43,452 nt of DNA from positions 1 to 43,452 of the IMG/VR virus record IMGVR_UViG_3300032272_000027, one strand, 5' to 3'. The notes below the pieces were generated by a model. It was not told the origin of the DNA. It was given only the letters and a program-made list of their open reading frames with translations, and made no database searches. Source of the stretch: a virus (lineage: Duplodnaviria > Caudoviricetes). Position numbers and translations under genes: made by a program. Shown here piece by piece: positions 1,592 to 43,061 of this stretch (position 1 is its first letter; every line of letters starts with the position of its first letter).

Positions 1592-1809
1592 CAAAAGGTC
1601 ATCACTTATGCGTAACTGTCAACCATTCGACACTTTTCGCATAGGCGGCAAAAATTTCAGAGTGGATATATGGATAAAAATGACGCGCATCAATGGGGGG
1701 CCCACCCCGGCCGGGCCTCTCGAGCAACTCCAGAACAATGAGTGCACAATCCGACCCCTTCTCCCCCCCCCCATCCTTCTCCCTCTGCCCACCCCACAAT
1801 CGTTCTAGG

Positions 1810-1837
1810 TGTTCCGATAACGGTCCTTATGTTGCGT
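1810..1837 (+). other. dif-like XerC/XerD recombination site
   Basis: TGTTCCGATAA-CGGTCC-TTATGTTGCGT has the 11-6-11 layout of E. coli dif (GGTGCGCATAA-TGTATA-TTATGTTAAAT), with conserved ATAA and TTATGTT flanking a 6-bp spacer; intergenic. Confidence 0.75.
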
Positions 1838-1926: not shown

Positions 1927-2187
1927 ATGCCAAGCGGACGGAAAAGGGATTGCGTTATTGGCAATAGTAAGTCGGCCCACCCCCTACGCTTATATCGTGA
2001 GATTAAAGGGTTGAGCCGACCACAGCTAGAACGTCTGTCCGGAGTGCCGACCACCTATCTAACCGACATAGAACTCCGAGACCTGTACCCTACCCCCAGG
2101 TACATTGACGCCCTAGAACGGGCCCTAGGTATCGACCCTGGGGTTTTGGCCCTAGGTTTTTACCGGCACTATCTAGCTACCAAATAA
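1927..2187 (+). CDS. XRE/Cro-like helix-turn-helix regulator
   Basis: LRLYREIKGLSRPQLERLSGVPTTYLTDIE...P....IDALERALGI fits the HTH_3 pattern. Confidence 0.85.
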   Translation: MPSGRKRDCVIGNSKSAHPLRLYREIKGLSRPQLERLSGVPTTYLTDIELRDLYPTPRYIDALERALGIDPGVLALGFYRHYLATK

Positions 2188-4346: not shown

Positions 4347-5114
4347 TCATTGTGCAGCGGTGAACGTCCCGCCATTCGACGAAGCTAAATCCCGAAGCCA
4401 ATCCGCTCCGGAGCCGCCGGCGGCAATCCAAACGGTATCGATCGGAATATCGGACCAGTTCGCCCCGGTTATAGCGGTCGCTTGTGCAAGTGCGGTCCCG
4501 CAGCCCCCGGGCATACCGTCCGAAACGACGATCAACCGCTTCCTTCGCTTGTTACTAGCCTGCAATTGACTCAGGCCCGAAACGGCGCTGGGAGCAACGC
4601 ACGTCCCCCCGCCAGCTTGGAGCAGCCAAACCCATCCCAATCCAGCCATCTTATTGCCGCTATTAGCAGGACGAAGGGCCCCAGCCCATTCCAGATTGTT
4701 ATCCCCAAAAGCATTCATTCCAAAATGCGCTCGAGAGGAGAGCTGACCAACGGCCCCGGTCACTTCCTGTTTCAAAACCTCAAGCTGACCGCCCCATCCC
4801 ATAGAACAGGACTTATCCATCGTCCAGAAGAACGCGTCCCCCTCAAATGTCGACCCATAAAACATGATCGATTCCGGCGCATCCTCGTCTTCCCCGTCCC
4901 CATTTGCGCCCGGCACCGGAAGGTCCAGGGGACGATGGGCCCCGGTATCGCCCAGGTGTAGGGGCGTCATCGGACGAAGGGCCCCAATGGTTGCGGGAAG
5001 AAGGGCCCCGTTCACTAAATCCCCACCATTTCCAACCGGGGAAACCCCGAGGTTGGGGGAAACTACGGGAAGAAGGGCCCCAAGGGAGAATATCAGGCCA
5101 ACCAGCGACCTCAT
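4347..5114 (-). CDS. Secreted von Willebrand factor A domain protein (host-like moron)
   Basis: Hydrophobic N-terminal signal, acidic linker, MIDAS DKSCS, GGGT, IVVSDGMP, IPIDTV, LRDLASSNGGTF. Confidence 0.85.
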   Translation of the reverse strand: MRSLVGLIFSLGALLPVVSPNLGVSPVGNGGDLVNGALLPATIGALRPMTPLHLGDTGAHRPLDLPVPGANGDGEDEDAPESIMFYGSTFEGDAFFWTMDKSCSMGWGGQLEVLKQEVTGAVGQLSSRAHFGMNAFGDNNLEWAGALRPANSGNKMAGLGWVWLLQAGGGTCVAPSAVSGLSQLQASNKRRKRLIVVSDGMPGGCGTALAQATAITGANWSDIPIDTVWIAAGGSGADWLRDLASSNGGTFTAAQ

Positions 5115-7237: not shown

Positions 7238-7710
7238 TCGTCCCCCTTGATTCGCCCGACTATCTCGTCGATCTGCTTGCCGGACTCTCCTTGATAGATT
7301 TTCTCATGGACGTATGCAATCGTGCGTAGGCACCGCTCCTTCATCTTGGCGACGGCGTCCTCCTTCGTCCGTTTACCCGCCCGCCACTCGGCGAGTTCCG
7401 ACTGGTCTAGGAGGTTCTGGTTCTGGTAAGCCTGGATGTCTCCGCACTTCCCGTCGACAACACCTTCCAACCGCTCGTTCTCCACCCGCAACCGTTCGAT
7501 TGCGTCATCGTATCTAGTTTTGTTCCGCTCCCGCTCCTCGGAGACGACTGCCTTGACCTCCCTTCGCAACTCATCGACCACGTCGGCGGCTGCGGTCAAA
7601 GCGTCCACAATCCTCCTCTGGTCCGACTCGCTTATATCGGAGAGTTGCGCGAGACGAAGCGCGTTCGCCTCGGTGCGTAGGTGGCGCGGTAGTTCGGTGT
7701 CCGGTGTCAT
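7234..7710 (-). CDS. Hypothetical coiled-coil protein (EERER module family)
   Basis: ATGA coupling; shares the 17-bp EERER junction with the next two genes. Confidence 0.7.
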   Translation of the reverse strand: MTPDTELPRHLRTEANALRLAQLSDISESDQRRIVDALTAAADVVDELRREVKAVVSEERERNKTRYDDAIERLRVENERLEGVVDGKCGDIQAYQNQNLLDQSELAEWRAGKRTKEDAVAKMKERCLRTIAYVHEKIYQGESGKQIDEIVGRIKGDE

Positions 7711-7952
7711 TCGTCCTCCTTCACCTTCTCGTACGCCGCCTTCAGCTCTAGGTACAAGTCGTATGGGTGTGTCTTCGATGGCATAGACACCATCTCTGGG
7801 ACATACCTATCAAGAACCCTCATCAACTCGCTCCACCGCTCCCGCTCCTCGGCAACGGCTTTGACGATGGCCTTGTGGATTAGATATAGGTCTTCTTCGG
7901 GAGCAATGCCGCCAACGACATCAAGGACTCGCTGTCGTTCCTCCGGTTTCAT
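7707..7952 (-). CDS. Hypothetical protein; C-terminal half paralogous to 7949-8224
   Basis: AEERERWSELMRVLDRYVPEMVSMPSKTHPYDLYLELK. Confidence 0.75.
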   Translation of the reverse strand: MKPEERQRVLDVVGGIAPEEDLYLIHKAIVKAVAEERERWSELMRVLDRYVPEMVSMPSKTHPYDLYLELKAAYEKVKEDE

Positions 7953-9469: not shown

Positions 9470-9704
9470 CTTCGCCCCCACCGTCCAAGATGGAGTTCGT
9501 AGGAACAACGACGAAAACCTGGTCTGCCCAGACTGCGATATTGTGGAGCGCACCCGAAAGCATCACATTAGGGATATTCTGATCCGCCGCCTTTCCGATC
9601 GCCGCCATAATTTCCTTGGTCATTTTCTCCACGACCTGAATTGATCGCTCGTTAAAAATTGCGTCCGTCATTTCGCTACCCTTTTCAAATTGTGCATTGC
9701 ACAT
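9462..9704 (-). CDS. Hypothetical protein
   Basis: Fills the operon and overlaps the next gene; start may be 9671. Confidence 0.5.
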   Translation of the reverse strand: MCNAQFEKGSEMTDAIFNERSIQVVEKMTKEIMAAIGKAADQNIPNVMLSGALHNIAVWADQVFVVVPTNSILDGGGEDE

Positions 9705-9847
9705 TCGGAACGTACTCCCCGGGAGAACCCCAGAGACCTAGAGGGAGAAGAACTCCCCGCCATTCGTAAAGAGCACCCGTTCGATTCTCTTATCCCACTC
9801 CTCCACAATCTTCTTAGCTCCCTCCCCGTCAGCCAGACATTCCTTCC

Positions 9848-10416
9848 CGGACATTCGAGCACTCTGGACCCCCCCTATAGGGGGGGGGTGTCCGTCCGGA
9901 TCGCTCTCGGGGGTTGTCGCGTGTCCGGCCGGTTGTCCGTTTGGTGTCCGGGCGTGTCCGTTTTGCATTATTGGGAACCCTTATTTCCACCGGGGTATTT
10001 CATTAGTGCCCGGGGTGTCAGCTTGACCGACCGCTTGCCCGTGCGCTCCAAACAACTATCGTCGACCATTGTAGTTACGGCCCTGCGGATCCTTCGTTTA
10101 GCGTTCTCAACTTCGGTCATTCCACCGTCAGGAATGATAGAATAAAGGTCGGAAACCTCGCACTCTGATCCGCCGGGGAATGTCCGGATGATGTCCGCCA
10201 GAGAATGACACAAGCGTTCGCCGTCCGGCAAGTGTCCGGAGCCCAAACGGACATCCTGCCCGGACATCTCAAGAGTAGCCGAAGTGATCGCTTCTCCCGT
10301 CTCGGGATCTCTAAGCCCGGTATCTACCGACACTAACGAGAAGACCATCGGCTTGAAGTTCTCCGTGTCCTTGGCTTTAGACGACGAAATCTCGACCGAT
10401 GTCCGGATGATGTCCG
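9848..10416. repeat. Putative replication origin: TGTCCG/CGGACA iterons with a C7-TATA-G9 palindrome
   Basis: Five TGTCCG in 9889-9960; GGACCCCCCCTATAGGGGGGGGGTGTCC at about 9866-9893; exact 18-bp repeat ATGTCCGGATGATGTCCG at 10180-10197 and 10399-10416. Confidence 0.65.
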
Positions 10417-11542
10417 TTTGGTCGCAACGTGTTGCTGCGCCTTTCTTTGCGATGATTTCAAAGTGTACGGCCCCAAGGAGAGAAGAGTGTCCGCGAGCCC
10501 CCCTCGTGGTGTCTTTTCCGGTGTGGTGGACGATCAAAACGACGCACCCGAACTCTTCGGATAGCTCCGTCGCGAAGGCATTGAAGACCCCCATGTCGGA
10601 GTCGTCGTTCTCGGATCCGCCCACAAGGCAGCGGTTGAGCGTGTCCAAAATTACCAACCCGAGGGGGATCCCAGGGTTGTGTTTGGCCGTCAGATACCGA
10701 AGATCTTCGCGGAATTGCTCCCGCTCGGTTGGCTCGAGCACTCTAACTGGGCGGTCCATGTAGTGGAAATTGCGGGCTGCGGTCAGTACTTCCAGCGCCT
10801 CACCCTCGATCGACCCGACGAAGTGGGCCCGGATACGCTGGTTGATCCCCCCCTGACCTTCCCCGAAGACGTAAAGAACTTGGTGCTGGGCGCTAGGTAG
10901 CTTGTGGCCGAACCATTCCGGATCCCCATTGGCCAAGGAAAGGGCGATAGAGAGCGCAACGAACGACTTGCCGCAACCTGGGGGGCCAACCAAGGTGCCA
11001 ACCTCCCCCCGCCGCATGAGATCCCCGCAGAGTCTTGGCGGAACAACCGCGTTCAGTGCGTCCGTGAGCGTCTTGAAGTTGGTCGACTCACCCTTGTCCT
11101 CAAGGGACTTGGATAGCGCCTCGATCCGCTTGGCGTAATTCTCCAGCAGGGACTTCGGGGTTAGCCCGTTCTTGGAATCCTCGGATAGCTCCTTAGCCAG
11201 ACTACGTATCGACCTCTTGGCATGCTCGTCCAGCAGCACCGCGAAAGCCTTATCAGCCTCGTGAGTGTGAACGCCCGACTCCACTAGATCCCAGACGAAG
11301 CCCTCCCCAGCCCTACGGCCTTCCGGGTCGATCTTCCCAATGTTGTCGATGACCTTAGTGACCGAAGCCTCTTCGGGCGACCACCCGCAATCGTAGACGA
11401 TGGCCTGGTGGGTTAGGAGGTGGTGATCGTTCTCCCAAAAACCCTCTTCTGGGACTCTGGTTAACAGGTCAAAGTTGCGCCCTAGCAGCCAGGCGCCTAT
11501 GACGGACTGCTCCAGCCGGATTCGGGAGTCAGAGCTAATCAT
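9968..11542 (-). CDS. Replicative SF4 helicase: DnaB-like N-terminal domain + RepA/AAA_25 ATPase + C-terminal wHTH
   Basis: LEQSVIGAWLL (DnaB_N-like), GPPGCGKS, LYVFGEG, ILDTLNR, ENDDSDM, IVHHTGK, RGHSSLLGA. Confidence 0.88.
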   Translation of the reverse strand: MISSDSRIRLEQSVIGAWLLGRNFDLLTRVPEEGFWENDHHLLTHQAIVYDCGWSPEEASVTKVIDNIGKIDPEGRRAGEGFVWDLVESGVHTHEADKAFAVLLDEHAKRSIRSLAKELSEDSKNGLTPKSLLENYAKRIEALSKSLEDKGESTNFKTLTDALNAVVPPRLCGDLMRRGEVGTLVGPPGCGKSFVALSIALSLANGDPEWFGHKLPSAQHQVLYVFGEGQGGINQRIRAHFVGSIEGEALEVLTAARNFHYMDRPVRVLEPTEREQFREDLRYLTAKHNPGIPLGLVILDTLNRCLVGGSENDDSDMGVFNAFATELSEEFGCVVLIVHHTGKDTTRGARGHSSLLGAVHFEIIAKKGAATRCDQTDIIRTSVEISSSKAKDTENFKPMVFSLVSVDTGLRDPETGEAITSATLEMSGQDVRLGSGHLPDGERLCHSLADIIRTFPGGSECEVSDLYSIIPDGGMTEVENAKRRIRRAVTTMVDDSCLERTGKRSVKLTPRALMKYPGGNKGSQ

Positions 11543-11883
11543 TGCAGTTTCTCCCAGTCCGACCGTATGGGGTTCTTGATAGGTATGTACTCCCTAGAAC
11601 GCTTTTGCTTCGGCTTGGCTTTCCTCTCCCCTGTGGCCACGGCGTCCCTGTATGTTTTGTTTTTGCAGCCCTCGCACATTCGGTACATCTTCGAGTGATA
11701 GAGCTTGCCGCATGAAGGGCAGTTAGCAAGGTCTCCAAGACTCTCGAGCTTGGTCCGTATCCTGAAAAGCGAGTCCAGGTACGCACTAACCTTTTCGTCG
11801 TTCGGCTCCGCCTGCCTTATCAACCACTCGATATCCTCGGGGGAGAACAAGGGCTCCGGATTCTCGGTCGAGTATTCAGCCAC
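11539..11883 (-). CDS. Zinc-finger protein
   Basis: CPSC-x10-CEGC; directly upstream of the helicase with overlap. Confidence 0.6.
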   Translation of the reverse strand: MAEYSTENPEPLFSPEDIEWLIRQAEPNDEKVSAYLDSLFRIRTKLESLGDLANCPSCGKLYHSKMYRMCEGCKNKTYRDAVATGERKAKPKQKRSREYIPIKNPIRSDWEKLQ

Positions 11884-14256: not shown

Positions 14257-14646
14257 TTAGAAGGGCGCGTCCGAAACGTCACTGGGATCTGCGAGGCCGA
14301 ACTCTCCGGCGTCCAGGTAACCGTTATCGTTGCTGAAGACAGTCGCCCAGGCGCAACAGCCGACAAGAGCGGAAGCGTCAACCTCCTCATTGGAGTCGCT
14401 ACCGTGCTGGTGGTTGAAGGCTCCGCAAAGTTCCACAACCTTCGCGCTGTGCGTCGGGCTGTCAGGCTTCCAGAAGAACTTCTTGTAGACCGTCTTTCCG
14501 AGTTGGTCCCCCTTGTAGACGGTGAGTTTCATATCCCAGTACGGATTGCCGTTCTTGTCCGTCTTCTCTACGCCCTCGTCTACCCGAACCAGATTGCGAC
14601 TCGGCTCGATCATTTCAATCTCTCCAGTGCCGTTAAAGCTAACCAT
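14257..14646 (-). CDS. SSB-like OB-fold protein (DUF669-like)
   Basis: KTDKNGNPYWDMKL; acidic C-terminal DVSDAPF; follows the Sak4-like ATPase. Confidence 0.7.
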   Translation of the reverse strand: MVSFNGTGEIEMIEPSRNLVRVDEGVEKTDKNGNPYWDMKLTVYKGDQLGKTVYKKFFWKPDSPTHSAKVVELCGAFNHQHGSDSNEEVDASALVGCCAWATVFSNDNGYLDAGEFGLADPSDVSDAPF

Positions 14647-15373
14647 TCGCCTTTTCCTCTTCCTTCAGATCTACCACTTTATAGTGGCTGTTAATTACCC
14701 GGAAGGTGTCTTCCGGACCCTCTGACTTAAACTTCTTCTTTAGCTGACGGCTACGGTCTTGGTGGACGGTGATTCCGATCAGCCCATGATCGATAGACTG
14801 GCTCTCGATCTCAAGGTCTACGAGATAAGACACTGAGGGTTCACACGCTACCTCATTGATATCCGGACCCTCAAGGTCGAAGTGCTTCTTTGAGCGCCCG
14901 ACCAGAACTAGATGGCATCGTCGACTAAGCTCGATCAGCCGCCGCATGAATGTTCCGAACTCCTGCTTGACGGGTTGCCAATCCTGAACCTGGAGGGTGT
15001 AAGAGTCCCCGTTGTGTCCAGGCTTACCGATCCGCGTCTTGAAGTGCCTATCTGTATGCTTCTGCTTTAAAGTCTCCCAGTACAGGGTGATCGAATCGAC
15101 TATTACGCAATCATAATCGTGCTCGTCAGCAATCAAGGCCGACACTACGGCCATCGCTTCTTTCTCTTTGCTCACCGGGAACACGGCGTAATCATGCCCG
15201 TCCTCGTACCGGGTGCCGCTCTCGAAGTCGATAACCGCCGTCTTGAAGTGCTTCGAGAACTCCAGGGCCGTCAACGTCTTGGCGCTGGATTGGGCGCCCC
15301 AGATCAACACCTTGAGATTCCCGGGATCTTCAGCCGGTGATCTTGCCAAGGTCTCTAGAATCCCCATCGTCAC
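14639..15373 (-). CDS. Sak4-like / AAA_24 single-strand annealing ATPase
   Basis: LKVLIWGAQSSAKT, VIDFESG, CVIVDSIT, QDW. Confidence 0.8.
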   Translation of the reverse strand: MTMGILETLARSPAEDPGNLKVLIWGAQSSAKTLTALEFSKHFKTAVIDFESGTRYEDGHDYAVFPVSKEKEAMAVVSALIADEHDYDCVIVDSITLYWETLKQKHTDRHFKTRIGKPGHNGDSYTLQVQDWQPVKQEFGTFMRRLIELSRRCHLVLVGRSKKHFDLEGPDINEVACEPSVSYLVDLEIESQSIDHGLIGITVHQDRSRQLKKKFKSEGPEDTFRVINSHYKVVDLKEEEKANG

Positions 15374-16556
15374 CTTTCTTTTTGTTAGGGATTAGCATCG
15401 CTACTCCTTCGTTTCTTTTGACCGGGCCGCCAGCGCCTTCCGTCCTGTTTTGGAAGTCTTGTCGGATAGCCCTCTTTGTCTGCTTGTTGCCCTCTTTGAT
15501 AGAGGCGTTTTGGACCACTCGGACGTACTCCTTTTCAAGCTCACCGATCTTGACAGAGCATGTATCCATGAACTCTTGCTCACCGACCCCGCGCTCTCGG
15601 CAGAGTTCGTAGAGCTTGATCGGGTCCACGACCGATCGGCTTTGCTGGCTTCGCGTTGTCCAGCCCTCGACGCTGTCCGGGTCTTCTTTCAAGCAGCGGA
15701 GAACCGCGGCACGGGTGGCCCTAGCAAGGGGTTCGATCAAGTGGAGCGCGTCCGCGTACTGCTGGATAGCCTCCTTGTTGGCCATTAGGTATTCCCTGGC
15801 AACGATCTCAACCTCTTTGTTGGTCATTCCCTCTTGGATCCCTACGGGCATAGCCGCAACCTGCTTGAACCTCTTGCTAACCAGCGGGCACGTCAGCTTG
15901 CCATTGCAAAACCCGCAGTGTTCCCCCTCGTTATACTCCGGCTCCGGGTCTTTGCAGGCGTCCACGATTGACGCGACGATCTTGATCGCTGACGGGAGGT
16001 GATCGATCTCGTAAGTGTAGGTATCTTCAAGTCGGGGCTGATGGAGGTAGCCAAACCCTTCCGGCTTGTTAAAACTTTGCATAGCGGCAGCGACATAAGC
16101 ATTGATTTGCATGGCCGCCGTGACCTTCTCGAGCGGCTCGCGGTTGGACTTCCAATCTACTACGCGGACCCAGTCCTGTCCTACCAGCAGGAGGTCAGCC
16201 GTGCCCGACGTTAGGACTGCCCCGTCCTCGCCGTACAGGGCTAGGGGCGCTTCGATGTAGATGTCGACGCCTGGGCCAACCCATGATTTAGACTTCAGCC
16301 AGGCTATACAGCGGCGAGCCAGGTCATCGGCCGTATCATCCCAAATTGGAAGAGGCGGGGCCCACTCTTTCCCCTCTACTACATGCCGCCTCCAAACGTC
16401 TAGCATCCCCTCGCACTCTTTGTGCATTTCAGTACCGAACTCGGCGGCTTCTCCGGCCTCTACGATCTCCGGGACGCCCGCCTCTTCCTTATAGCTACCG
16501 GGGCATAGTCGTCGGCGCCCAAGGTTGCTAGGTGAATTTGGGTGGTGATAGCTCAA
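15330..16556 (-). CDS. DUF2800 / Cas4-like PD-(D/E)XK exonuclease
   Basis: SPS....LCPGS, AAEFGTEMH, GTADLL, VVDWK, QINAY, QPRL, GEHCGFC....CP (four-Cys cluster). Confidence 0.85.
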   Translation of the reverse strand: MSYHHPNSPSNLGRRRLCPGSYKEEAGVPEIVEAGEAAEFGTEMHKECEGMLDVWRRHVVEGKEWAPPLPIWDDTADDLARRCIAWLKSKSWVGPGVDIYIEAPLALYGEDGAVLTSGTADLLLVGQDWVRVVDWKSNREPLEKVTAAMQINAYVAAAMQSFNKPEGFGYLHQPRLEDTYTYEIDHLPSAIKIVASIVDACKDPEPEYNEGEHCGFCNGKLTCPLVSKRFKQVAAMPVGIQEGMTNKEVEIVAREYLMANKEAIQQYADALHLIEPLARATRAAVLRCLKEDPDSVEGWTTRSQQSRSVVDPIKLYELCRERGVGEQEFMDTCSVKIGELEKEYVRVVQNASIKEGNKQTKRAIRQDFQNRTEGAGGPVKRNEGVAMLIPNKKKGDDGDSRDLGKITG

Positions 16557-29240: not shown

Positions 29241-32200
29241 CTAGTTCCTTGCGTCCAAGAGTGACGTGTCGCCGAACGATTGTGGGTATTGCTCCATTGC
29301 GTCGATCGATCTGGCTGACCGGACCTCGGCCTCGTAAAGCTCTTTGATCTGGTCAATTTCACCAACGGATCTGCCGAAGCGTCTCGCTAACTGGAGTGCC
29401 ATTGCGTACCCAAGGGCCTTTTGAGCGGAACTATCCAACTGGCTAACGTTGGTAACATCTGTGATATATACACAGTAGACCTCAGCTTCGTCAGTGTAGA
29501 GCACACGGATTCTACCGTCAGCGTCTAGCTCAATTTCCCACTTGTCAGTGCCGGGCTTACACTCCTCTTCATTGACCCCGAGAATGCGAACCCAGCAACT
29601 AGGCAATTCGTAAGCGTAGCTCCACCTTTTAGAGTGGTCAGCGCCACCCTCGATCTGTGTAAGTTGCTCGGTCCTTTTCGCACCGTTCCACCCGGTCTCT
29701 CTCAGGAAGTCCCGGCGCACAACGGGCCACACAGCGCGGCAAAGATCAGCCTCTGGCGAAACCTCATCGTCGCTAGCGATCAAGGCTTGCCCAAGCTCAA
29801 CAAGGCCAATATTCCAGATATCCGAGACGCATACGATATTGCACCGGTCGTCGATCGTCCCGCAATCCTCAAGCGTACCCACGGTAGCGGAAGAGTTGGT
29901 CATAGACGGGCTATCTACATCAATGTCCTGCCCGATCGGGACAACCGTCGCCGAACTCGCGGAGCCTGAAACGCTAACGTTCTGGTTAGGAAGGATCAGC
30001 GGGAAATAGGCAAGCGTAAACGACACTGCCGCAGCGGACCCTGTAGAAGATCCCGAAGCTCCAGAACCTCCAGCCCCAGATGATCCACCAATGCTTAACA
30101 TGAACGGCGCGGCGTAGGCCGAAACAGTAGCAACCGAGTCCGAGAAACTCCGAGAACTCGGAACCGGGAAGAGCGGGGTGTCTGGGCCGCCCGTGTAGAC
30201 AACTTGGGCTTCGCTGCTCGTCACACTACGCGACTGGCTGCTCATGTTGTCAAACAGGTAGCCGTCATAGGTGTAGAACATATTGGTAACAAACCCGGAA
30301 GTGGTGCTGCCGCTCTGGAACGAGAAGCCCCCACCGCTCGGGTACAACGATTGGATGTAAGCTACGTTGGCCGGATCGATTGCAACCTCGTCATACATCC
30401 AGCGGTTAACGTACCCCTGCCATGTTGCGTCACCCACTTTATCGAGGATACCGAGGACTTTACCCATGAGGTAGAACCCACCCATCCAGGTGTGCCCGTT
30501 GATCCTACGGTAAGCCTCTTTTTGGTAGCCAGTCTGGCTAGTCCCAGCGGCTTGCAACTTATTCCACTCGGTCGGATGCAGGTGTTCGTGCTCCTGGGTG
30601 CTGCCAACGTCGGCGCGGAAGTAATACGGACTTCCCGTCCAGGTCTGACCAACAGGGACGACAAAGCATGCTGGGGTAGCTGACTGGGTAGCCACTCCAC
30701 CGTAAGTCCCGCATGTACTAGGAATGGTGCTGGTGATCTGGTCCGAGGTGTAAGTAAACCTCGTGTGGCGGGCGTACCCATAGTTGAAATCAAGTATCGA
30801 CGAGTCCTCGAGCATGTACCCGGCAAACTTGACGACCCCGTGGTGGTAAGCCCTATCGGTCGCAAACGTGATCGGACCTCCAGACTCACCGGTTAGAGAG
30901 TCTTTGGCGGCATGGTAAAGGTCCAAGCCAATCTGTACGAGACCGTGGACCATATCTTCCTTATCGGAAGCGGTACCGCCAAGTGACGTTGGATCGCAAA
31001 GCGCCATTGTTAGGCATTCATCTAGGCACTCATACACCTGCTCGTGATAAGCTGGCATGTTATCCGTGGGATGGTGGTACCTTGCAATCGCGTCCCGGAG
31101 GTGTTGGATCCAGGGCTGGGTTACGAAAGTTGCATATCTAGCAATCAGGTTAGATACGCCCCCTCCGTCAGACTTAACGTTCGTATTGTTAGGTGTAAGG
31201 TTCGGCAGTCGGTTCATGTCGATAGAACTGGCGCTATACGTCGTCTTGGCTGAACCTGAAGTACCGATAAACGTAGGCCGGTAAGTCTCAGCACTGACAA
31301 AAATGTCATAGCCGTAAGGGAGAACTGTGAGAACCTGGGCCTTCTTTAGCGGGGCATTGTTGTCTTGCCCGAAGTACGCTTCTGACCACGGGGCGCTAGT
31401 GGTTTGGCTCTGCGTGGACACCAGGGAGTCCCACGGGCTAAGAACCGCCGGGTAGCTCAGCGCCGCGCCACTGTTATACGTCGGGGTACGGTTGTCATAA
31501 CCACAGATGTTATCCCCGCCGCTCGGGTTTTTCATCGTCCCGTTACGTCCAGTTGTCGGTGTCGGGGTCACGGATGTTACTGTGATCGTTCCGTTGTCTG
31601 TTGTGTCAGACTTTTCCGGGAAGACACCCCAATCTCCATTCTTGAACTGCATGACGCGGTATGCCTGGTCGAAGTCCCAGCGGATCCCCTCCTTCTCGAC
31701 AAAGTCTTGGTAGGTTCCGAGAGTCGGCTCACTCACGATCGTCATAGTTACCGGGGCAGATTCAACCCCATCATATGTTGCAGTCACAACAGTAGTGCCA
31801 GGGCTGCCGGTATCTATGGCGGTGAACACTGCCGGGCTCTGTCCGCTAGTGATCGTCATTAGCGAACCGGCCGTCTGCGAGAACGTAGCTTGGGAGGTGA
31901 CATCCACGGTGCCCGACTGAGGAGTCGTCGCGGTCACCGTCACGTTGACGCTCTCAAGGCTGGGGGAATACTGCAACAGCGTGTCTGATACGTTGATCTC
32001 TACAACCAAAGAGTTCGGAAGCGGGACAGGGACACCATTGACCGAGAAATCCGCCCACGCTTTAACCCCAGGGTCTCCAGACCATACACCGATCTTGCCT
32101 ACCGTGTAGCGAGAGCTAGTGGGGTCATACACATCAGCTTGCCAAGCTGCGGGCTCGGTAGATCCAACCTCCCACACCTTCGCACGGATTCTAGTGGCAG

Positions 32201-35200
32201 CCGAACCACTAACTGGCTCAGTAGTGTCCTCGACGTAGACCCGAAACTCATACCACTGGCCAATGGTAGGGACTACACCGGTATCCCGGTTCCCAACCGC
32301 TCCGACAAACGGGCCTGTTCCGCCGCCACCGAACGTAGACCACTTTGAAATCGTGAACGCTTGGCCTCCTGGGTTCTCGGTGCGCCGCAAACGATAATAT
32401 TTACCAGCGCCGCCAAACCCGAATTGACTCAGGAACGTTACGCCAGAGCCGCCAATTTCGGAGCCTTCATCACCAGCCTGCGGCAAGATTTTCCCGCGGT
32501 AGTCAACATCCGCCGACGTGGTGTCCCATGAACCTGTAAGGCTAGTAGACCCGAGGAAATGGGAATGAATGTTTGCCGTTGGGTCGGTTGTCTTGAGGGC
32601 TAGATACCCGTCAACGTCTTCCACCGTGAAAAGATCGTCGTCTTCCTCGAAGTAACTCGTCCCAGTAGTATCAGACCACACGCCAGTCTCCGTACTTACA
32701 TCCCAGGTTACGTTAGCGAGTGAATTAGACGACGTAGAAGAAGAGTTAGAAAGAAGGTCCGTGTCTAGGGCAAAGCCGCTTACGTCACAGGTGGATACCG
32801 AAACGCTACTCGACTCGCCTCCGCCAGTAACCGTAAAGAAGTTATTTTCTACGACGACGTTGGACGGCAACGAGATATTCTCGTCATTGGTGGAGCCGCC
32901 CCAGATATGAGGAGACTTGACTGGCGTGTTCATCCAATCCCAAGCCCACGGACCCTCCCAGGAATCCGAAGTCAGGGTACCTGTGAACTCACAGTTAACG
33001 CCAGGGTCGGAAATACTCTGAGTCACCGCGTAGATCATCGGCTGGAATATAGTGACGTATAGCCGGTATCTCCCGTCCGGGTCTTGAGCAACGTGGTGCG
33101 GAGTGATCGACCCACCATTGAGCGGGGACACCGTCTTACCCGACCCGCCCCCGCTACTGATACCGACCACTTGGTGATAAAGCTCAAGCTCAGTACCGCT
33201 AGCTGGAACGCTTCTGATTCTAGAAATACCATAGTCATTCAAGTCGCTAACGCTGTTGCGAATGACAACGGTCTGGTCTACCTCGAAGGGTACGGTGTCA
33301 CTCAACCCACCAATGGTAGACCCAGAAACAATGCTATAGCTACGGGCCGACCCAGCGCCAGGCGACACCACTGGGAAGGAACTCGGAGTCCAGATAACAC
33401 CGTCAGAACTGGTCGCGAACCCGACAGACCAACCGACCGGGTTCTGGAATGCTCCGAGTCGCCTCGAGTATCCCGAGAAATACATCTGCCACTCGGACCC
33501 ACTCCAACGGACAACAGGATCAGCGGATCCGTGGTTCCTAAAGTTGGTTGGGTCGCTAGTCTCACCGAGGCAAGAACCGTCAGGTCCGGAACCGGGCAGT
33601 TTGGTCCACAGCGGCGTACTATTGTTGCTGCCCCACGGGCTAGACCCGCCGAAACAGAAGATCCTATGAACGTCCGTACTATTGCCGTCAATTACAATCG
33701 TACGCTTGCCGGTTAGATAGAGCTTGTACGGGTAACTTGTGTCCCGCTTATCGCGAACCATCCACATCTGCGAAACAAGCTCATACGTCGACCCCACACC
33801 AGACAGAGAGGTAATCGGGAATACTGGGTTTGGCGGGGCATTTGGGTTGTCCTGCCACGGAAGCCCCTGGCTTGCCCGCCACTTCATGCCAATATCGCCG
33901 TCAGACCAAAAACTAGAGTCGGTGTTGAACCCCTCGTAGAATAAGTATTGGGCTCCGTCGTCGTCCTCGAAGATATGCTTCTTGCGGTAACCCTTGTCGT
34001 CCCATGCACCAGGGGTGGGGGTCAAGACTTCGGTATCACCGCGGTCTTTGGGTTGAATGACTCCACCATACGAGACTCCCTCGCGGAGTTGGTAAATCTC
34101 ACTACCAGAAACATTGAGGGCGTCACTCTGGTTGGTGATCGCATAGCCAGATATTTCCCTGGAGTTGAGAACGACCCGCGCAACCTCCCAAGATCCACTA
34201 TAAGCATCCGTATATCGGTCACCTATAGTCATGAACAGGCTGTCCGTAGACCCAACGTCTCCGAAGTCAATCCAGTCAGACATTGCGACCATCCGCAACC
34301 CCTGATCCTTGTCCGAGTAACTAGATCCTACAGCGTTAATACCAGAGAATCGGACACGGCTAGTATTGAACTCGACCCTGATCTCGTACCAATCGCCAGC
34401 CGAACCAGTTCTGATAGGCCCCTGGGCTCCAGTCTGCAATGCGGTCCAGGACGAACCATTCCAATAAAGCGGCGATCCTCCAGGGGTGTAGTATTTGTAT
34501 TCAAAGCCAGACGGGCTGATACCAACAGAGAACCGTCGCTCGCCAGAAATGGAAGCCGACACATCAGCCGTTGGTGTGCTAGCTGTATCCCAAAAGGTAA
34601 TCAAGTCTGGGTGGCTGTTGTTCGTTAGCGACCTAAGCAGGATCGACCAACATTGCTCACGGCCCGTATCGATTGGCGAGTTAAAGTGAACCAGTGCGGC
34701 GTCACCGATATCTGGCGACGACAAGAGGAAGCCGCCATTTGACAGGTTCTCGGTCAGCGCCCCATTCCCGGACACGGACGAACCAAAGTTATCACCAAGC
34801 GAATCAGTGAAGTCCTCGACGAACGACACGTTGTAGGTGACAACACAAGAGCTAGAGCTAACCGCGGCACTAGATAGAGACTCAAGGGCACCGTAAAAGG
34901 TCTGAACGTCGCACGTCGAGCCGAACACGCTCCGGCTTATCCCGATAACACTGTTACCGATCGTTACCGAAGAGGCGGATATCGTCGGCGAGTCAGTAGT
35001 TCCGATTGAGGCGTAAACAAGCTCGCCGTTGACATCGCAACTCGCACCGGAAACGGTCGGGCTCGAGACAGAACCTAGCGAGGTAGTCGTATCGACGAAC
35101 TCAATAGCCCAGCCGATCCACTGCTTGGCCGCTCCGTCCACAGCGGAGTAGTTGATCTCTACGCCTAGGCCGTCCTCGATGATCCCGCCAGAAGCATTAG

Positions 35201-36311
35201 CCCCCTCGAAGTACCCCGTGCCAGCCGTTCCGTCATGCAGTTTAAGGTAGGCCGGTGAGTTAGTGATATAGCTCTCGCCGTCCTCGTCAGCGGTACCGTC
35301 TTCCTCTGCTAGTGAAATCGCCCACTGTTCGTCACTCGTAATTGTCCAAACACCGAATGCACCACCGTCGCCGGAGGTTATCGCAGCGTTTTTCGTCTCG
35401 ACATGCGAGGCTATGATTTCCATAACGCTCGGGGTGAACCCTGGCTCGCTGTGCGAATGGTCGCCGGTAACTGTTGGAGAGGTTGTGAAACCACCCCAGA
35501 AACTACTATTGTCACAATCTAGAGCCGCGTACAGCACCTGCTTATCAACGTCGCCAGTCTCGTCAACCACCTCGAATTCAAACGAAGTCGAGCTAACATA
35601 GTTGATGCCGATACCCTCGTACGTTGTGCCCTCGTATAGATTCCTGTGCACCACGCGATCGTCAACAATGGCGAACACTTTGGCCGAGGTGTTATCGTCA
35701 GACCCGCGGTTGTACGAGAAGTTGTCGTACGTTGTTCCGTTGCGAACGGCGATACCCTTAGAGATATAGCCGTCGTCGGATACCGTTCCGTCAATCGTCC
35801 CCTGGTGCCCAGATACCGTAAAGATGAGGTCGGACTCTTTGGACGTGGTGATCGTGTCGTTGGCGGCTTGTGTTGGGTTGCCGAAGCCGACCTTTGCCGA
35901 ACCACTACCAGTAAACAGGGTGATCCTGAGACGGTAAGCGTTCCCATCAACGGCGCGCCAAGTTACACGGATACCATCAGTGATAGCTACGGGGGTATCA
36001 CAGTACGCATTCCATGAACCGTCAGTGAACGACATGCACCCAGCTAGTACGGTGCTATCGGTCTTTCTCTTGGTGTCGGTAGCCGAACCGATGTTGTTGT
36101 TACTAAACGCAACACAACCCTGGTTAGTAAAGTCTGTCCAGCCTTCGGCGTACACCACTGAATAAGAAGCGGTGTCATCTGCCGTGGCGTTAATAACCTC
36201 GAGGCGGGCCAGGATCGGAGTCCCGAAGCCTGAGATTGTGTAATCTTCAGTAAAAGGAGTAGAGCCCGAGGTGGGCACCGCCGTTTTAATCACACCTGTT
36301 TCGATGGCCAT
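29241..36311 (-). CDS. Giant multidomain virion protein: beta-rich, GH-propeller, lectin and Ig domains fused to a C-terminal gp11-like tail adaptor
   Basis: Last ~200 aa (SDIWNIGLVELG...EADLC...RRDFLRETGWNGAKR...WSYAYELPSCWVRI...LYTD...ALGYAMALQLA...ARSIDAMEQ) match the tail tubular protein A pattern; sits immediately before the nozzle. Confidence 0.85.
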   Translation of the reverse strand: MAIETGVIKTAVPTSGSTPFTEDYTISGFGTPILARLEVINATADDTASYSVVYAEGWTDFTNQGCVAFSNNNIGSATDTKRKTDSTVLAGCMSFTDGSWNAYCDTPVAITDGIRVTWRAVDGNAYRLRITLFTGSGSAKVGFGNPTQAANDTITTSKESDLIFTVSGHQGTIDGTVSDDGYISKGIAVRNGTTYDNFSYNRGSDDNTSAKVFAIVDDRVVHRNLYEGTTYEGIGINYVSSTSFEFEVVDETGDVDKQVLYAALDCDNSSFWGGFTTSPTVTGDHSHSEPGFTPSVMEIIASHVETKNAAITSGDGGAFGVWTITSDEQWAISLAEEDGTADEDGESYITNSPAYLKLHDGTAGTGYFEGANASGGIIEDGLGVEINYSAVDGAAKQWIGWAIEFVDTTTSLGSVSSPTVSGASCDVNGELVYASIGTTDSPTISASSVTIGNSVIGISRSVFGSTCDVQTFYGALESLSSAAVSSSSCVVTYNVSFVEDFTDSLGDNFGSSVSGNGALTENLSNGGFLLSSPDIGDAALVHFNSPIDTGREQCWSILLRSLTNNSHPDLITFWDTASTPTADVSASISGERRFSVGISPSGFEYKYYTPGGSPLYWNGSSWTALQTGAQGPIRTGSAGDWYEIRVEFNTSRVRFSGINAVGSSYSDKDQGLRMVAMSDWIDFGDVGSTDSLFMTIGDRYTDAYSGSWEVARVVLNSREISGYAITNQSDALNVSGSEIYQLREGVSYGGVIQPKDRGDTEVLTPTPGAWDDKGYRKKHIFEDDDGAQYLFYEGFNTDSSFWSDGDIGMKWRASQGLPWQDNPNAPPNPVFPITSLSGVGSTYELVSQMWMVRDKRDTSYPYKLYLTGKRTIVIDGNSTDVHRIFCFGGSSPWGSNNSTPLWTKLPGSGPDGSCLGETSDPTNFRNHGSADPVVRWSGSEWQMYFSGYSRRLGAFQNPVGWSVGFATSSDGVIWTPSSFPVVSPGAGSARSYSIVSGSTIGGLSDTVPFEVDQTVVIRNSVSDLNDYGISRIRSVPASGTELELYHQVVGISSGGGSGKTVSPLNGGSITPHHVAQDPDGRYRLYVTIFQPMIYAVTQSISDPGVNCEFTGTLTSDSWEGPWAWDWMNTPVKSPHIWGGSTNDENISLPSNVVVENNFFTVTGGGESSSVSVSTCDVSGFALDTDLLSNSSSTSSNSLANVTWDVSTETGVWSDTTGTSYFEEDDDLFTVEDVDGYLALKTTDPTANIHSHFLGSTSLTGSWDTTSADVDYRGKILPQAGDEGSEIGGSGVTFLSQFGFGGAGKYYRLRRTENPGGQAFTISKWSTFGGGGTGPFVGAVGNRDTGVVPTIGQWYEFRVYVEDTTEPVSGSAATRIRAKVWEVGSTEPAAWQADVYDPTSSRYTVGKIGVWSGDPGVKAWADFSVNGVPVPLPNSLVVEINVSDTLLQYSPSLESVNVTVTATTPQSGTVDVTSQATFSQTAGSLMTITSGQSPAVFTAIDTGSPGTTVVTATYDGVESAPVTMTIVSEPTLGTYQDFVEKEGIRWDFDQAYRVMQFKNGDWGVFPEKSDTTDNGTITVTSVTPTPTTGRNGTMKNPSGGDNICGYDNRTPTYNSGAALSYPAVLSPWDSLVSTQSQTTSAPWSEAYFGQDNNAPLKKAQVLTVLPYGYDIFVSAETYRPTFIGTSGSAKTTYSASSIDMNRLPNLTPNNTNVKSDGGGVSNLIARYATFVTQPWIQHLRDAIARYHHPTDNMPAYHEQVYECLDECLTMALCDPTSLGGTASDKEDMVHGLVQIGLDLYHAAKDSLTGESGGPITFATDRAYHHGVVKFAGYMLEDSSILDFNYGYARHTRFTYTSDQITSTIPSTCGTYGGVATQSATPACFVVPVGQTWTGSPYYFRADVGSTQEHEHLHPTEWNKLQAAGTSQTGYQKEAYRRINGHTWMGGFYLMGKVLGILDKVGDATWQGYVNRWMYDEVAIDPANVAYIQSLYPSGGGFSFQSGSTTSGFVTNMFYTYDGYLFDNMSSQSRSVTSSEAQVVYTGGPDTPLFPVPSSRSFSDSVATVSAYAAPFMLSIGGSSGAGGSGASGSSTGSAAAVSFTLAYFPLILPNQNVSVSGSASSATVVPIGQDIDVDSPSMTNSSATVGTLEDCGTIDDRCNIVCVSDIWNIGLVELGQALIASDDEVSPEADLCRAVWPVVRRDFLRETGWNGAKRTEQLTQIEGGADHSKRWSYAYELPSCWVRILGVNEEECKPGTDKWEIELDADGRIRVLYTDEAEVYCVYITDVTNVSQLDSSAQKALGYAMALQLARRFGRSVGEIDQIKELYEAEVRSARSIDAMEQYPQSFGDTSLLDARN

Positions 36312-39363: not shown

Positions 39364-40994
39364 ATTGACGGTCCCGCTCTATCAATGGGGACTTGCCCCT
39401 GGGTTTTGCTTTGCATCTCGGCGGTTCGCTCCATAGCGTTCGCCTCTGCCCGCTTCTCTCGGCGAGCCCTAACCTCTTCTGGCTTGAAGAAGATCTCTGA
39501 CGGAACGCTGGACAGTTGGCGGTCGATCTTGCTCAAGGCGTCCGGGTCGATATCGTCCAAATATCGAGGGTCTTGAGTGGCTTGGAAAATGGCCAATCGG
39601 CGCTCCATGAAGGCATACATGCCGATAGCTGAACTCTCGCGCTGGGAGCGGAAGAACGGGGAGACATGCTGGTAGCTGAGGAAGCCTTCCCCGATCTTGG
39701 CCATAGCCTCATCAAGCTCTGGGAGTTGCTTGGCCTTTTGCATGAAGCGGATAGTGGCGTCAAGGATCGGATTGAGTAGTTCAACAGCTACCGTCTCGCT
39801 GGGGGCGGAGAGTCTTTGGAGGCTACGGGCCATTCGCTGGCGGCTCTCCTCTGCACTGCGGGGCTGGGTGTCCGGGTCTCTAAGGGCCTCAGTCATAAAG
39901 CCGCGCTCAATCTGCTCGCGGTCACTACGAGCTAGACCGAGGACAAGGTCGTATCGACTATTAGCCTGTAGATAACGGGGGTCTTGGGTGCCCTCCTTCA
40001 TGATGCTAATGCCGTTAGGACCGCTATTAAGCTGAAGGTGCGAATCCTCATTAAGAATAAGCGGGGGGTTCATATCTCTAGGGGCAGCCATGAGGAACTG
40101 ACGCTGGAGTTCATTGAGTCCTTTGGCGTCTGGACGAACCAGGTGTCCACGACCACGACCGTACCACTCGCCATCAACTACCTGCCAGCGACTGACAATA
40201 TAGGGGTTGAAGTCGAAACCACTCCGGCGGACCACTTCGGGTTTCTTGCCGATCGAGACCCAGTCAGAAGAGATCGCCTTCTCTGTAGCTGGGACCAAAC
40301 CCTTCTTCCCAGGCTTATACAACTTGTTGGGATATACAAACTGGAGATACTTAACCATGCCCATCGGGTCTTTGTCCAGGATCTCCCGGCCGTCCACACC
40401 CATGTCCTTGAGGCCGAAGAACTCCGCAGCGTCAACCGCTGGCATCTCCACTTCACGGACGTAGAACGTTACTTTCCCGCCCCGACCGCACATCCACCAA
40501 GAATCAGTCGTCGGGACAGTCTCGTACGACAACCCCCCAAACTGACTATTAGTCTCAAAGTCGTCGTCCTCTTCCACCGACATAACGGAGTTCCCAATGG
40601 TGGAAAAGTCAGCGAGGGCGGAACTGGACTGGACGTAGAAGTTAGATACAGCAAGGGCTCTAAGAACACGGTTGCGCGTATCATCAAGGAGGCCGCGAAC
40701 CTCTAGGTCATCGTCCCAACCATAAGGGGGGAGGATAGAGAACCACTGAGAATCAGAGCTAGGGAAGAGAGCGCCTTTGAGGAAGTTAACGAAGGTGTCT
40801 CGAGCATTCATTGCCGTTGAGTCGAACACCCCCGAGACGCGCTTCTGGCCCGCACTCCGCTTGGTGTTGATATCACCACGGAACGGGCTCATTAGGTCCA
40901 CGATCTCTTGCCAAGTGCCCTCATGCTCGTAACGGCGACTTTTAAGGAGTCCCCAGCGATCCATGAGGTTCTTGGCGAGTTTGTCCTCTGCCAT
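39360..40994 (-). CDS. Portal (head-tail connector) protein
   Basis: WQEIVDLMSPFR, FDSTA, SNFY, PYIVSRW....GEWYGRG, NPPL, SAEES; T7/BPP-1-like. Confidence 0.92.
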   Translation of the reverse strand: MAEDKLAKNLMDRWGLLKSRRYEHEGTWQEIVDLMSPFRGDINTKRSAGQKRVSGVFDSTAMNARDTFVNFLKGALFPSSDSQWFSILPPYGWDDDLEVRGLLDDTRNRVLRALAVSNFYVQSSSALADFSTIGNSVMSVEEDDDFETNSQFGGLSYETVPTTDSWWMCGRGGKVTFYVREVEMPAVDAAEFFGLKDMGVDGREILDKDPMGMVKYLQFVYPNKLYKPGKKGLVPATEKAISSDWVSIGKKPEVVRRSGFDFNPYIVSRWQVVDGEWYGRGRGHLVRPDAKGLNELQRQFLMAAPRDMNPPLILNEDSHLQLNSGPNGISIMKEGTQDPRYLQANSRYDLVLGLARSDREQIERGFMTEALRDPDTQPRSAEESRQRMARSLQRLSAPSETVAVELLNPILDATIRFMQKAKQLPELDEAMAKIGEGFLSYQHVSPFFRSQRESSAIGMYAFMERRLAIFQATQDPRYLDDIDPDALSKIDRQLSSVPSEIFFKPEEVRARREKRAEANAMERTAEMQSKTQGQVPIDRAGPSI

Positions 40995-42514
40995 CAGAAC
41001 ACCTCGTATTCATTGCTCGTTGGAGCGTATGAGAATCCTTCGCCGGGACTCTTTGCAAATCGCATCATCATCCACCCCTTGAACAGTGCGTCCATAAGGT
41101 GGTCGTCTTGGCCTTTGACAGGCTTGTCACCCTCGGCTCTATAGGTACGAAACTCTCGTAGTATCTTCTCGCAAGTATCGAAGATCTTCAGCTTGCGGTC
41201 GCTCAGGAGGTCAAAGATCCCCTGGATGATATAGTCGACACTGTTTGTCTTCTGGTAGCCGCCGCCAGTCTTCGGACGGAGGGCATATGCAGCCTCATGG
41301 CACATATCTAGGCCATAGCCAGCGTATATGTCTTTGAGCTTCTGGCCGTCGTGGGCTCGTCCTGCGTCATGGGGCCAGGCGCATTTCGTCTTATCCCCGC
41401 CCATCTTCTTAACAGCGTGTCCATGTTGGGCCGAGTGGGTAGGGATAGACTCACCCTTAAGGTCGGTGTTCTTGTACTCAGAGACAATCCACACCTCGTC
41501 CTTGTCGGGGGAGATCGCTAATTTGACGGCCCCGAACACGCCATTGGTAGTGTGGGGGAAGTCCATTCCAATGATCGTCTTCCAGGTGTCTGGTACCTGG
41601 CGCGGCGGGATAGTCACTTCCTCCATGTCGAAGGGGAAGATAATCCCAGAACCGTAAGTAGGCTCGCCATAGGCTCGAGTGCGCTCCATATGGGATCCAC
41701 GGTACTTATCGCGAATACTCTGCTTCCACTCCTCCGTTTGGTGGTCGGCGTCGTCAACCGTGTAAACGATAATGTCTCGCTGGCGGCGGTCCTTGCACTC
41801 CTTGAAATGCTGGTAAAGCTCCGTGTACCCCTTTAGCGGAGTCTCCGAGATCTTCATAACGCCCTGAGTAGCGTTCAGGCGGGCACTAAGCTCGGTGTAG
41901 ACTTCGAACGGCGGCTCTTCGTCGATATATACTCTGTGGATCGTGTAACCCTGTGCGCGCTCCCAACCCTTTGAGTAAGCAAACACCTTGAACCAAGTTT
42001 TAAAGTCAGGGTGTCCATTTGAGTCGAAGTGCTGGATTGAGAAGTAATCAACTTGACCGCGCACACCCCCGGTCTTGAGGATAATATCCTTCTCGTCAAT
42101 GCACCATGAGGGGATAAGGCCGCTCCCGCGCTCACCCATTCGGCCTAGAAGCTTGTCGCACAGTAGATCTCGGGTCGTCTCGGCCGTCTCACCGCCAAGC
42201 ATAAAGTTCAAGCCCTTGAGACCGTCCGGGTAACGGGGGCCCTTATACCACGGGAACAAGTCGTAGAGGCCGGTAGAGTGGATTACGATATCAAGAAGAA
42301 GGGCTGTAGACTTCCCGCCCTGGTTGAGACCGGAGAGCATAACTTCGAAGGCCAAAGAGCAGATAAATGCGATCTGCTTGGCGTTCGGGATAATCTCGTG
42401 AATGGATCGATCTAGGTCCAGGCTCTCCGAGAGCGACTCGAACTCGTCAAGCATCTCGGGGGTAACTGTCACCTCCTGGTCGATATCGTCGAAGCGGTTA
42501 CTCAACCTCGCCAC
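40994..42514 (-). CDS. terL: Terminase large subunit
   Basis: Walker A GLNQGGKST, Walker B VYIDEEPP, C-motif SETP, RNase H-like IGMDF...WPHD...DDHLMDA; start possibly TTG at 42505. Confidence 0.93.
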   Translation of the reverse strand: MARLSNRFDDIDQEVTVTPEMLDEFESLSESLDLDRSIHEIIPNAKQIAFICSLAFEVMLSGLNQGGKSTALLLDIVIHSTGLYDLFPWYKGPRYPDGLKGLNFMLGGETAETTRDLLCDKLLGRMGERGSGLIPSWCIDEKDIILKTGGVRGQVDYFSIQHFDSNGHPDFKTWFKVFAYSKGWERAQGYTIHRVYIDEEPPFEVYTELSARLNATQGVMKISETPLKGYTELYQHFKECKDRRQRDIIVYTVDDADHQTEEWKQSIRDKYRGSHMERTRAYGEPTYGSGIIFPFDMEEVTIPPRQVPDTWKTIIGMDFPHTTNGVFGAVKLAISPDKDEVWIVSEYKNTDLKGESIPTHSAQHGHAVKKMGGDKTKCAWPHDAGRAHDGQKLKDIYAGYGLDMCHEAAYALRPKTGGGYQKTNSVDYIIQGIFDLLSDRKLKIFDTCEKILREFRTYRAEGDKPVKGQDDHLMDALFKGWMMMRFAKSPGEGFSYAPTSNEYEVF

Positions 42515-43061
42515 CGTCGATATCTAGCGGCGGGTTCTCGATAGCCAACTTCTGGGCGAGGATCCGCAGGCGCTTGCGCTTCGCCTCATAATCAAGATCT
42601 TCCGTCGCGTCATGGTTAACGTTCTCGTTCAAGTTATGAGAAACGCTCTCCTTGCCCATCATGCTGGCGTAAACCTTCAGTACGCTAAGTCCCCAATTGG
42701 CCTCCTTGGTATCGTCCCAGTCTAGCCGATCGCATTTGTCCATGAGGGAGGGAAGGAAGGAAGTTTTCTCTATCCCATACATGAAGGAGAGTTTGCTTTC
42801 GAAACTCTTAAACTGGTTGTTGTAGACCTTGATATCTTCGTTACGGGTAGATATCGCCGTCGTCCAAGCGCGGTTGAATTCCTCGTCCTTGGCGGAGGCT
42901 TCTACAACTTGCTCGTGCTTGATCTTCAGCGCACGGCAGACATCGATACTGTCACCGTCCATAGACTTTAGACGACGCAAGAAGGCGGCCTTCTGCTTAT
43001 CGCTTAGCTCTACAAGGTCGGGCTTAATGCCGTCTTTGAATCTTCCGTCCGGTTTGGGCAT
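42498..43061 (-). CDS. Probable terminase small subunit
   Basis: N-terminal HTH-like segment (KAAFLRRL...DVCRALKI...DEEFNRAW); immediately upstream of terL. Confidence 0.65.
   Translation of the reverse strand: MPKPDGRFKDGIKPDLVELSDKQKAAFLRRLKSMDGDSIDVCRALKIKHEQVVEASAKDEEFNRAWTTAISTRNEDIKVYNNQFKSFESKLSFMYGIEKTSFLPSLMDKCDRLDWDDTKEANWGLSVLKVYASMMGKESVSHNLNENVNHDATEDLDYEAKRKRLRILAQKLAIENPPLDIDGGEVE

Follow-up and report, generated by a model that had tools for sequence, protein, structure and literature searches.

A Planctomycetota-like dif site in a podovirus genome without a recombinase gene, and its possible use by host XerCD on phage DNA

The analysed stretch of DNA (hereafter the window) is a viral genome of 43,452 nt, which carries at positions 1810-1837 the sequence TGTTCCGATAA CGGTCC TTATGTTGCGT. 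This 28-bp site has an 11-6-11 layout with an inner dyad and a 6-bp centre, and the features around it are collected in Table 1, where the arms are presumptively labelled XerC- and XerD-type according to the E. coli convention. A preliminary description had placed a dif-like site in a non-coding gap upstream of an XRE regulator gene; the sequence proved to be as described, with 89 nt between the end of the site and the XRE open reading frame (ORF). The gap (1592-1926) harbours only short overlapping ORFs, for instance 1693-1920 (+, 75 aa), and the XRE gene is the first of a series of small, early-like genes on the + strand. An ORF with an HEXXH motif (927-1406) was considered as an anti-repressor gene and could not be identified as such, its nearest clusters being unnamed viral proteins. 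The core ATAA-N6-TTATGT has a single match in the window and was seen in two of 100 shuffled sequences. With one mismatch allowed, a looser dif pattern appeared in 38 of 100 shuffles; taken by itself, the local chance test is thus weak, and it is hosts and relatives that carry the case. Only one site is present, and a pdif module (a pair of sites flanking a gene) was not found in the window. Nine KOPS motifs point toward the site and four away from it, a count that is confounded by gene strand.

The window has identical ends of 120 nt, is classed as DTR and 100% complete, and represents a circularly assembled podovirus of 43 kb. Its virion module is T7/BPP-1-like and its TerL belongs to the P22 family. 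In addition, a helicase, a Sak4-like annealase and an exonuclease are encoded; relatives have RecT and YqaJ in place of the latter two, which would be expected to produce multimers via homologous recombination. The lack of a tyrosine or serine recombinase, noted earlier, was borne out by six-frame searches of this complete genome with PF00589, PF00239 and PF07508, all of which came back empty. Among the 54 ORFs of the window, no match to an integrase, transposase, partition or plasmid Rep family was obtained in PHROGs and Pfam, and ParA and ParB (PF13614, PF02195) were found in none of five records, namely the window and its relatives G345, G346, G379 and G420.

Three further observations were made in the window. 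An ORF of 2356 aa (29241-36311, -) matches a tail tubular protein (phrog_394) with its final 190 aa, and no PHROGs or Pfam family matched its N-terminal 2160 aa. A perfect 19-bp inverted repeat lies within coding sequence (7801-7819 and 11570-11588, 3.75 kb apart), for which no inversion joint was found in the source run. Finally, the words GTGTCCG and ATGTCCG recur at about 9600-10500, near the end of the helicase gene, and mark a possible replication origin, some 8 kb away from the dif-like site.

Table 1. Coordinates of the site and of associated features in the window
Feature	Position	Strand	Evidence or remark
G-run/C-run tract before the XerC arm	1695..1809	+	Candidate genome-end/packaging region
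XerC-type arm TGTTCCGATAA	1810..1820	+	Exact left-arm sequence at 10 of 26 kept dif loci in the class of G213
6-bp central region CGGTCC	1821..1826	+	1/6 vs GGTATA, the spacer of G304 and G274, the hosts with the best arm match
XerD-type arm TTATGTTGCGT	1827..1837	+	10/11 vs G304 and G274; 11/11 vs G002, G001, G005, G048 and G067
XRE-family HTH protein	1927..2187	+	PF01381 and PF13560 above cut-off; 86 aa, HTH domain only
VWA-domain protein, host-derived	4347..5114	-	Nearest Atlas clusters mostly Planctomycetota; independent host marker
Sak4-like annealase and exonuclease	14639..16556	-	phrog_124, phrog_69
terL and terS	40994..43061	-	PF03237, phrog_2, phrog_4044; synteny anchor; distance to the site over the circular junction about 2.6 kb

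It had been proposed to search bacterial genomes for a matching dif at the GC-skew terminus, and this search led to Planctomycetota lineages with matching arms (G002, G159 and G001). The core CCGATAA-N6-TTATGTTGCGT was found at no fewer than 120 GTDB loci, at least 95 of them titled Planctomycetota; among the matches listed, 25 of 120 had another or no phylum title. The pattern CSNATAA-N6-TTATG gave a single match in each of the genomes G001, G002 and G004. In Kolteria novifilia (G002), KOPS polarity switches at the dif site (7+/1- in the 20 kb to the left, 1+/8- in the 20 kb to the right). The GC skew of G001 changes sign within 200 kb of the dif-like site, and that of G159 flips around it (six of seven samples positive before, nine of nine negative after). 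G159 belongs to the Planctomycetota class that includes genome G213 (hereafter the G213 class). Around 20 dif loci of this class KOPS were not polar (25 toward, 20 away), and in the class that includes genome G005 (the G005 class) 114 pointed toward dif and 12 away. At the dif-like site of G004 the terminus signal is noisy, and in G003 the site lies 50 kb from dnaA; the position of dnaA was rejected as an unreliable guide to the terminus. The phage site is a copy of a Planctomycetota dif, which is placed at the replication terminus in three genomes.

Of 201 Planctomycetota genomes, 152 contained a loose dif pattern, usually a single time, and some control hits were also obtained; the left arm in these matches is mostly ACGTC(C/T)GATAA. 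In the survey of Kono et al. 2011 (PMC3025954), dif could not be predicted in the one Planctomycetota genome included. A usable pattern can now be given for this phylum, for which that survey could predict none; our literature search, with most subscription journals outside its scope, found no published work on Planctomycetota dif. In eight Planctomycetota MAGs (L002, L007, L011, L028, L042, L045, L074 and L093) we observed many dif-like sites, arranged on several contigs as inverted pairs about 230-255 nt apart and in this resembling pdif modules. The plasmid pSINAC02 of Singulisphaera acidiphila (L102) has the same core with a spacer of its own.

The host of the phage is very probably a member of the Planctomycetota and probably of the G213 class. 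Among 301 Planctomycetota genomes, all 19 in which the VWA ORF reached a best E-value below 1e-40 belong to this class, with a best identity of 46-49%. The dif pattern was found in 30 of 59 genomes of the class; from the arm and spacer counts, with 26 loci kept, L468, L475, L478 and L481 were left out as not dif-like. The closest sites of the class, those of G304 and G274, read TGTTCCGATAA GGTATA TTATGATGCGT and agree with the window at 21 of 22 arm bases. Seven arm-matched host loci have the common spacer GGTACA, and none of the 26 spacers of the class starts with C or ends in CC. The G005 class is the second candidate: the pattern was matched by 17 of its 18 genomes, the exact XerD arm by three (G005, G048 and G067), and 11 of 17 spacers end in CC. 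The lone match at all 22 arm bases, among the matches listed, came from an Oscillospiraceae MAG (L096). Xer-sized tyrosine recombinases are encoded by the candidate hosts.

The XerD arm had been put forward as non-canonical and as a help in identifying the host. The site as a whole does identify the phylum, but TTATGTTGCGT turned out to be ordinary as a XerD arm: several lineages of Planctomycetota have it, as do a few further phyla, and it therefore locates the host poorly. As a host tag it was rejected, since it matches 21 of 301 Planctomycetota genomes versus nine with control hits. In the sequences compared, the XerC arm TGTTCCGATAA is the more diagnostic of the two. For uncultured Planctomycetota phages, the arms serve as a tag of the host lineage.

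Relatives of the phage were found by TerL profile search and alignments, while TerL or capsid as single queries returned no close relative. In four of them, G345, G346, G379 and G420 (two found via TerL and two via the motif), the site is found right after a G-run/C-run tract, at 1.8-2.0 kb upstream of terL, and its strand agrees with that in the window. Their TerL proteins are 41-43% alike to that of the window and 82-89% among themselves. Pairwise, the arms of these four are alike at 9-11 of 11 positions and the spacers at 0-3 of 6, the 6-bp spacing being exact, and the arms resemble the dif of the G213 class. No PF00589 match was obtained in any of the four, three of which are 94-100% complete. 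Judged from these alignments, selection would act on the arms and not on the spacer. At the final two positions of the spacer, G345, G346, G379 and L354 agree with some arm-matched host; the whole spacer of G420 (GGTATA) equals that of five host loci in the G213 class.

Conservation in related phages was thus seen in part: the site is syntenic in the four relatives and in L354, and most TerL relatives are without it. It was flagged in eight of 45 non-redundant TerL rows, of which two had been added for the motif and many were short of upstream DNA. In L266 and L370 it lies elsewhere, and L287 has both a site and an integrase of its own. The complete relatives G349 and G350 carry neither site nor integrase, so the site is dispensable. 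An XRE gene next to the site was not seen in the relatives scanned. In a quick TerL tree the branch of the window is long and has no support. Relatives in culture are only distantly related (TerL 32-34%, portal 25-28%), and no convincing site was found in HTVC203P or ctVRi840.

Across viral sequences, TGTTCCGATAA-N6-TTATG was found in 49 stretches versus 10 for the same pattern with 7 nt, and several of the complete records among them are without PF00589. The spacing geometry matters across phages. In a post hoc count, to which no weight was given, 12 of the 49 lie within 600 nt of a contig end, where 4.2 were expected. A clade of 60-kb gut phages with the same core was set aside as not comparable, as 15 of 40 records have an integrase of their own; in this clade (the L123 group, 55-62 kb) the core lies within the open frame of the tyrosine integrase (e.g. 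G326:995-1022). The core also occurs in low-GC (27-35%) viral contigs (L122, L128, L131, L132, L137, L140, L143, L145, L147, L148, L150, L156, L165, L166 and L174); of these, the record G312 is 87% complete and has no PF00589 match. Planctomycetota-like cores without PF00589 were likewise seen in unrelated viral records (G309 (L125), G332 (L154), G338 (L162), G375 and G377), G338 having three dif-like sites.

Many relatives, whether the site is present or not, have a tract similar to that in the window, at a distance of 1.4-2.4 kb upstream of terL. A G6 run was found in the last 250 nt of 17 of 61 upstream contig ends, compared to 87 of 898 background windows and two of 58 downstream ends, related contigs not being independent. 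Contigs of the source run break at 1763-1776 of the window. These breaks fit a genome end or pac region, and G-run sequencing dropout explains them equally well. A literature search on the termini of HTVC010P found nothing relevant.

In a sister clade, tandem XerC-type arms lie directly after the same kind of G/C tract. G351/L260 has 18 arms, L263 17, L364 16 and L366 nine, spaced by 14-19 nt and without any XerD arm; the array of G351 is at L510:18870-19235. The arrays are oriented opposite to the full site, and their arm variants GGGGCCGATAA and TGTTCCGATAA are also found in dif of the G213 class. No published XerC half-site array in phages was found in our literature search, which left most subscription journals outside its scope. 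The presence of a full site or a half-site array at one locus makes a direct comparison of binding, self-recombination and integration possible.

The reading that fits these data best, and to which we give an even chance, is that the phage has its own DNA resolved or circularised by host XerCD, and is not inserted into the chromosome by it. The site would bind host XerC and XerD, and two copies of it would recombine after activation of XerD by FtsK or an accessory factor, so that circular multimers are resolved or the incoming genome is closed. The G/C tract would then lie near the packaged genome end. Xer exchange between unlike sites needs homology of the central region next to the acting recombinase, as described for VGJ, TLC and GGI (PMC5357621). 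A spacer that has to match only itself would be the mark of self-recombination. The arms track the host while the spacer drifts, a behaviour like that of a site which recombines with itself or only binds. Against this reading stand the spacer of G420, equal to the host spacer at five loci of the G213 class, and the half-site arrays without an XerD arm, which self-recombination does not explain. The CC end of the spacer and the XerD arm of the window match the G005 class and would allow a XerD-side exchange with such a host, and gokushovirus dif motifs are reported to integrate though their spacers vary (PMC7062461). Moreover, the phage annealase could circularise the genome without Xer. The earlier proposal that multimers are resolved via host Xer agrees with the data better than lysogeny does; its phage-plasmid part, a stable plasmid state, is unsupported, as no ParA/ParB was found. 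The literature search, again with most subscription journals outside its scope, found no published tailed phage that puts host dif to use on its own DNA.

Integration as an IMEX, with the site as the attP through which host XerCD would insert the phage at dif of the chromosome, as in LME-1, gokushoviruses and VGJ/TLC, is in our opinion doubtful; it would possibly proceed by a single XerD-side strand exchange, completed by replication. Such a lifestyle agrees with the missing recombinase gene, the arms shared with G304 and G274, the XRE gene beside the site, the G420 spacer and the two-base XerD-side spacer matches of several relatives, and the podophage LME-1 is described as integrating at dif (PMC9765430, PMC12407071). 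Several host contigs also end within about 110 nt of dif. However, spacers are random among close relatives, and the attP sites of VGJ, TLC, GGI and LME-1 are described as having the host central region wholly or partly (PMC5357621, PMC9765430), whereas that of the window agrees at one base of six. At 20 and 16 dif loci of the two candidate classes, no phage genes adjoin dif. A search for host-phage chimeric reads breaking at 1821-1826 had been proposed; among the contigs of the single source run, which was covered to 67%, no junction or loose end at 1810-1837 was found. No weight was given to a depth difference in this run (15.9 vs 19.1), since a related phage shares the branch that forms the second break. 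A related phage is seen in the run as a low-depth contig about 87% alike to window 7581-7708.

Searches with the TerL profile recovered a prophage in none of 59 genomes of the G213 class and none of 18 of the G005 class, and in one (G270) of 401 Planctomycetota genomes; these samples overlap, are small and consist mostly of incomplete MAGs. The G270 podovirus prophage (G270:C34:2168001-2202467; L623, L624) is a distant relative, whose TerL, portal and capsid are 27% alike to those of the window. A canonical-type dif site lies 1.95 kb upstream of terL, between primase and terS, with the phage primase and iteron-like repeats on its other side. The virion genes and the visible prophage end adjoin tRNA-Arg(CCT), the left end not being in view, and no intact tyrosine integrase is listed near the prophage. 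The simplest reading is a prophage integrated at a tRNA gene, with the site retained in its interior. Since the assembly has no other canonical site, this one could also be the chromosomal dif of the host, lying between two elements. A match resembling the XerC arm at the right prophage end was rejected as a junction, since it lies inside a small coding gene. The lysogeny at host dif that had been suggested is made less likely by the diverged spacers, by the half-site arrays and by the prophage of G270.

A role of Xer loading without recombination is unlikely. In this reading the site or arrays would bring XerC(D) to the part of the phage DNA that enters first, lies near the origin or forms the end, there to act as decoy or roadblock or to offer a handle through which FtsK, Topo IV or SMC is controlled. 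Topo IV acts at dif, and SMC unloading depends on XerD. Arrays of 9-18 XerC-type arms after the same kind of tract, with arm variants present in the candidate host class, speak for loading, and a free spacer is expected if binding alone matters. Yet the window and four relatives keep both arms at the exact 6-bp spacing, a geometry five-fold over 7 nt, which cooperative binding of XerC and XerD could likewise demand. In addition, the arrays could consist of iterons that serve a phage protein, and they are oriented opposite to the full site. A chance match or a neutral relic of captured host DNA, in line with the shuffles, the many TerL relatives without a site and the sole complete arm match in an Oscillospiraceae MAG, is very improbable: syntenic, same-strand sites in four relatives, with arms kept and spacers and flanks diverged, largely refute chance, and arms and VWA gene independently point to the same host class.

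A broader proposal, which we regard as plausible though short of an even chance, is that podoviruses of Planctomycetota reserve one Xer-recruiting spot at the head of the early genes, by the likely genome end. There, a dif with a private spacer or an array of up to 18 half-sites would let host XerC(D) close, unlink or shield lytic DNA, or would titrate it off the chromosome. If true, Xer would be used on lytic phage DNA, which is neither IMEX integration nor plasmid maintenance, and host Xer would have a role on phage DNA beyond integration. A dif mimic in an integrase-less tailed phage would then alone be no mark of lysogeny.

Compared to chromosomal dif with XerC, XerD and FtsK, the site has the same 28-bp 11-6-11 layout, with arms almost identical to those of G304 and G274. 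Host sites lie at a skew or KOPS switch, whereas that of the window lies on a 43-kb phage with a GC-rich spacer and no clear KOPS polarity. A tailed-phage IMEX is already known in Legionella phage LME-1, described as a T7-like podophage (PMC12407071) that integrates at dif through a 22-bp att identical to that of the host (PMC9765430). Both are short-tailed dsDNA phages with a host dif mimic. In contrast to LME-1, which was found integrated with an identical att, the window has a differing spacer and no prophage at dif was found in the genomes searched; LME-1 is an IMEX of the XerL/dif system, while the host system of the window is apparently a two-arm XerC/XerD one. VGJphi, TLCphi, GGI, gokushoviruses and DJR phages are likewise integrase-less elements with one dif-like site. 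VGJ attP is described as keeping XerC-side spacer homology, and TLC and GGI as keeping the spacer and degrading the XerD arm (PMC5357621, PMC9226527), whereas both arms of the window are canonical and its spacer is free; gokushovirus spacers vary too. XafT (PMC9226527), gokushoviruses (PMC7062461) and dif-type DJR phages (PMC12715192) are described as IMEXs. No activator gene common to IMEXs was seen beside the site of the window.

In phage P1, loxP has a circularising role. Among plasmids, Xer resolution sites include cer, psi and the FtsK-dependent xrs of large plasmids (bioRxiv 10.1101/2024.04.05.588136). In cer and psi, the XerC arm is flanked by an accessory sequence of about 200 bp with ArgR/ArcA/PepA sites. 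Unlike these replicons, the window is without ParA, ParB, a plasmid Rep match or a phage-encoded Cre. Like them, it has one site per replicon that would recombine with itself, and, as in cer and psi, a conserved non-coding stretch, here the G/C tract, lies by the XerC arm, where the accessory sequences of plasmids are found.
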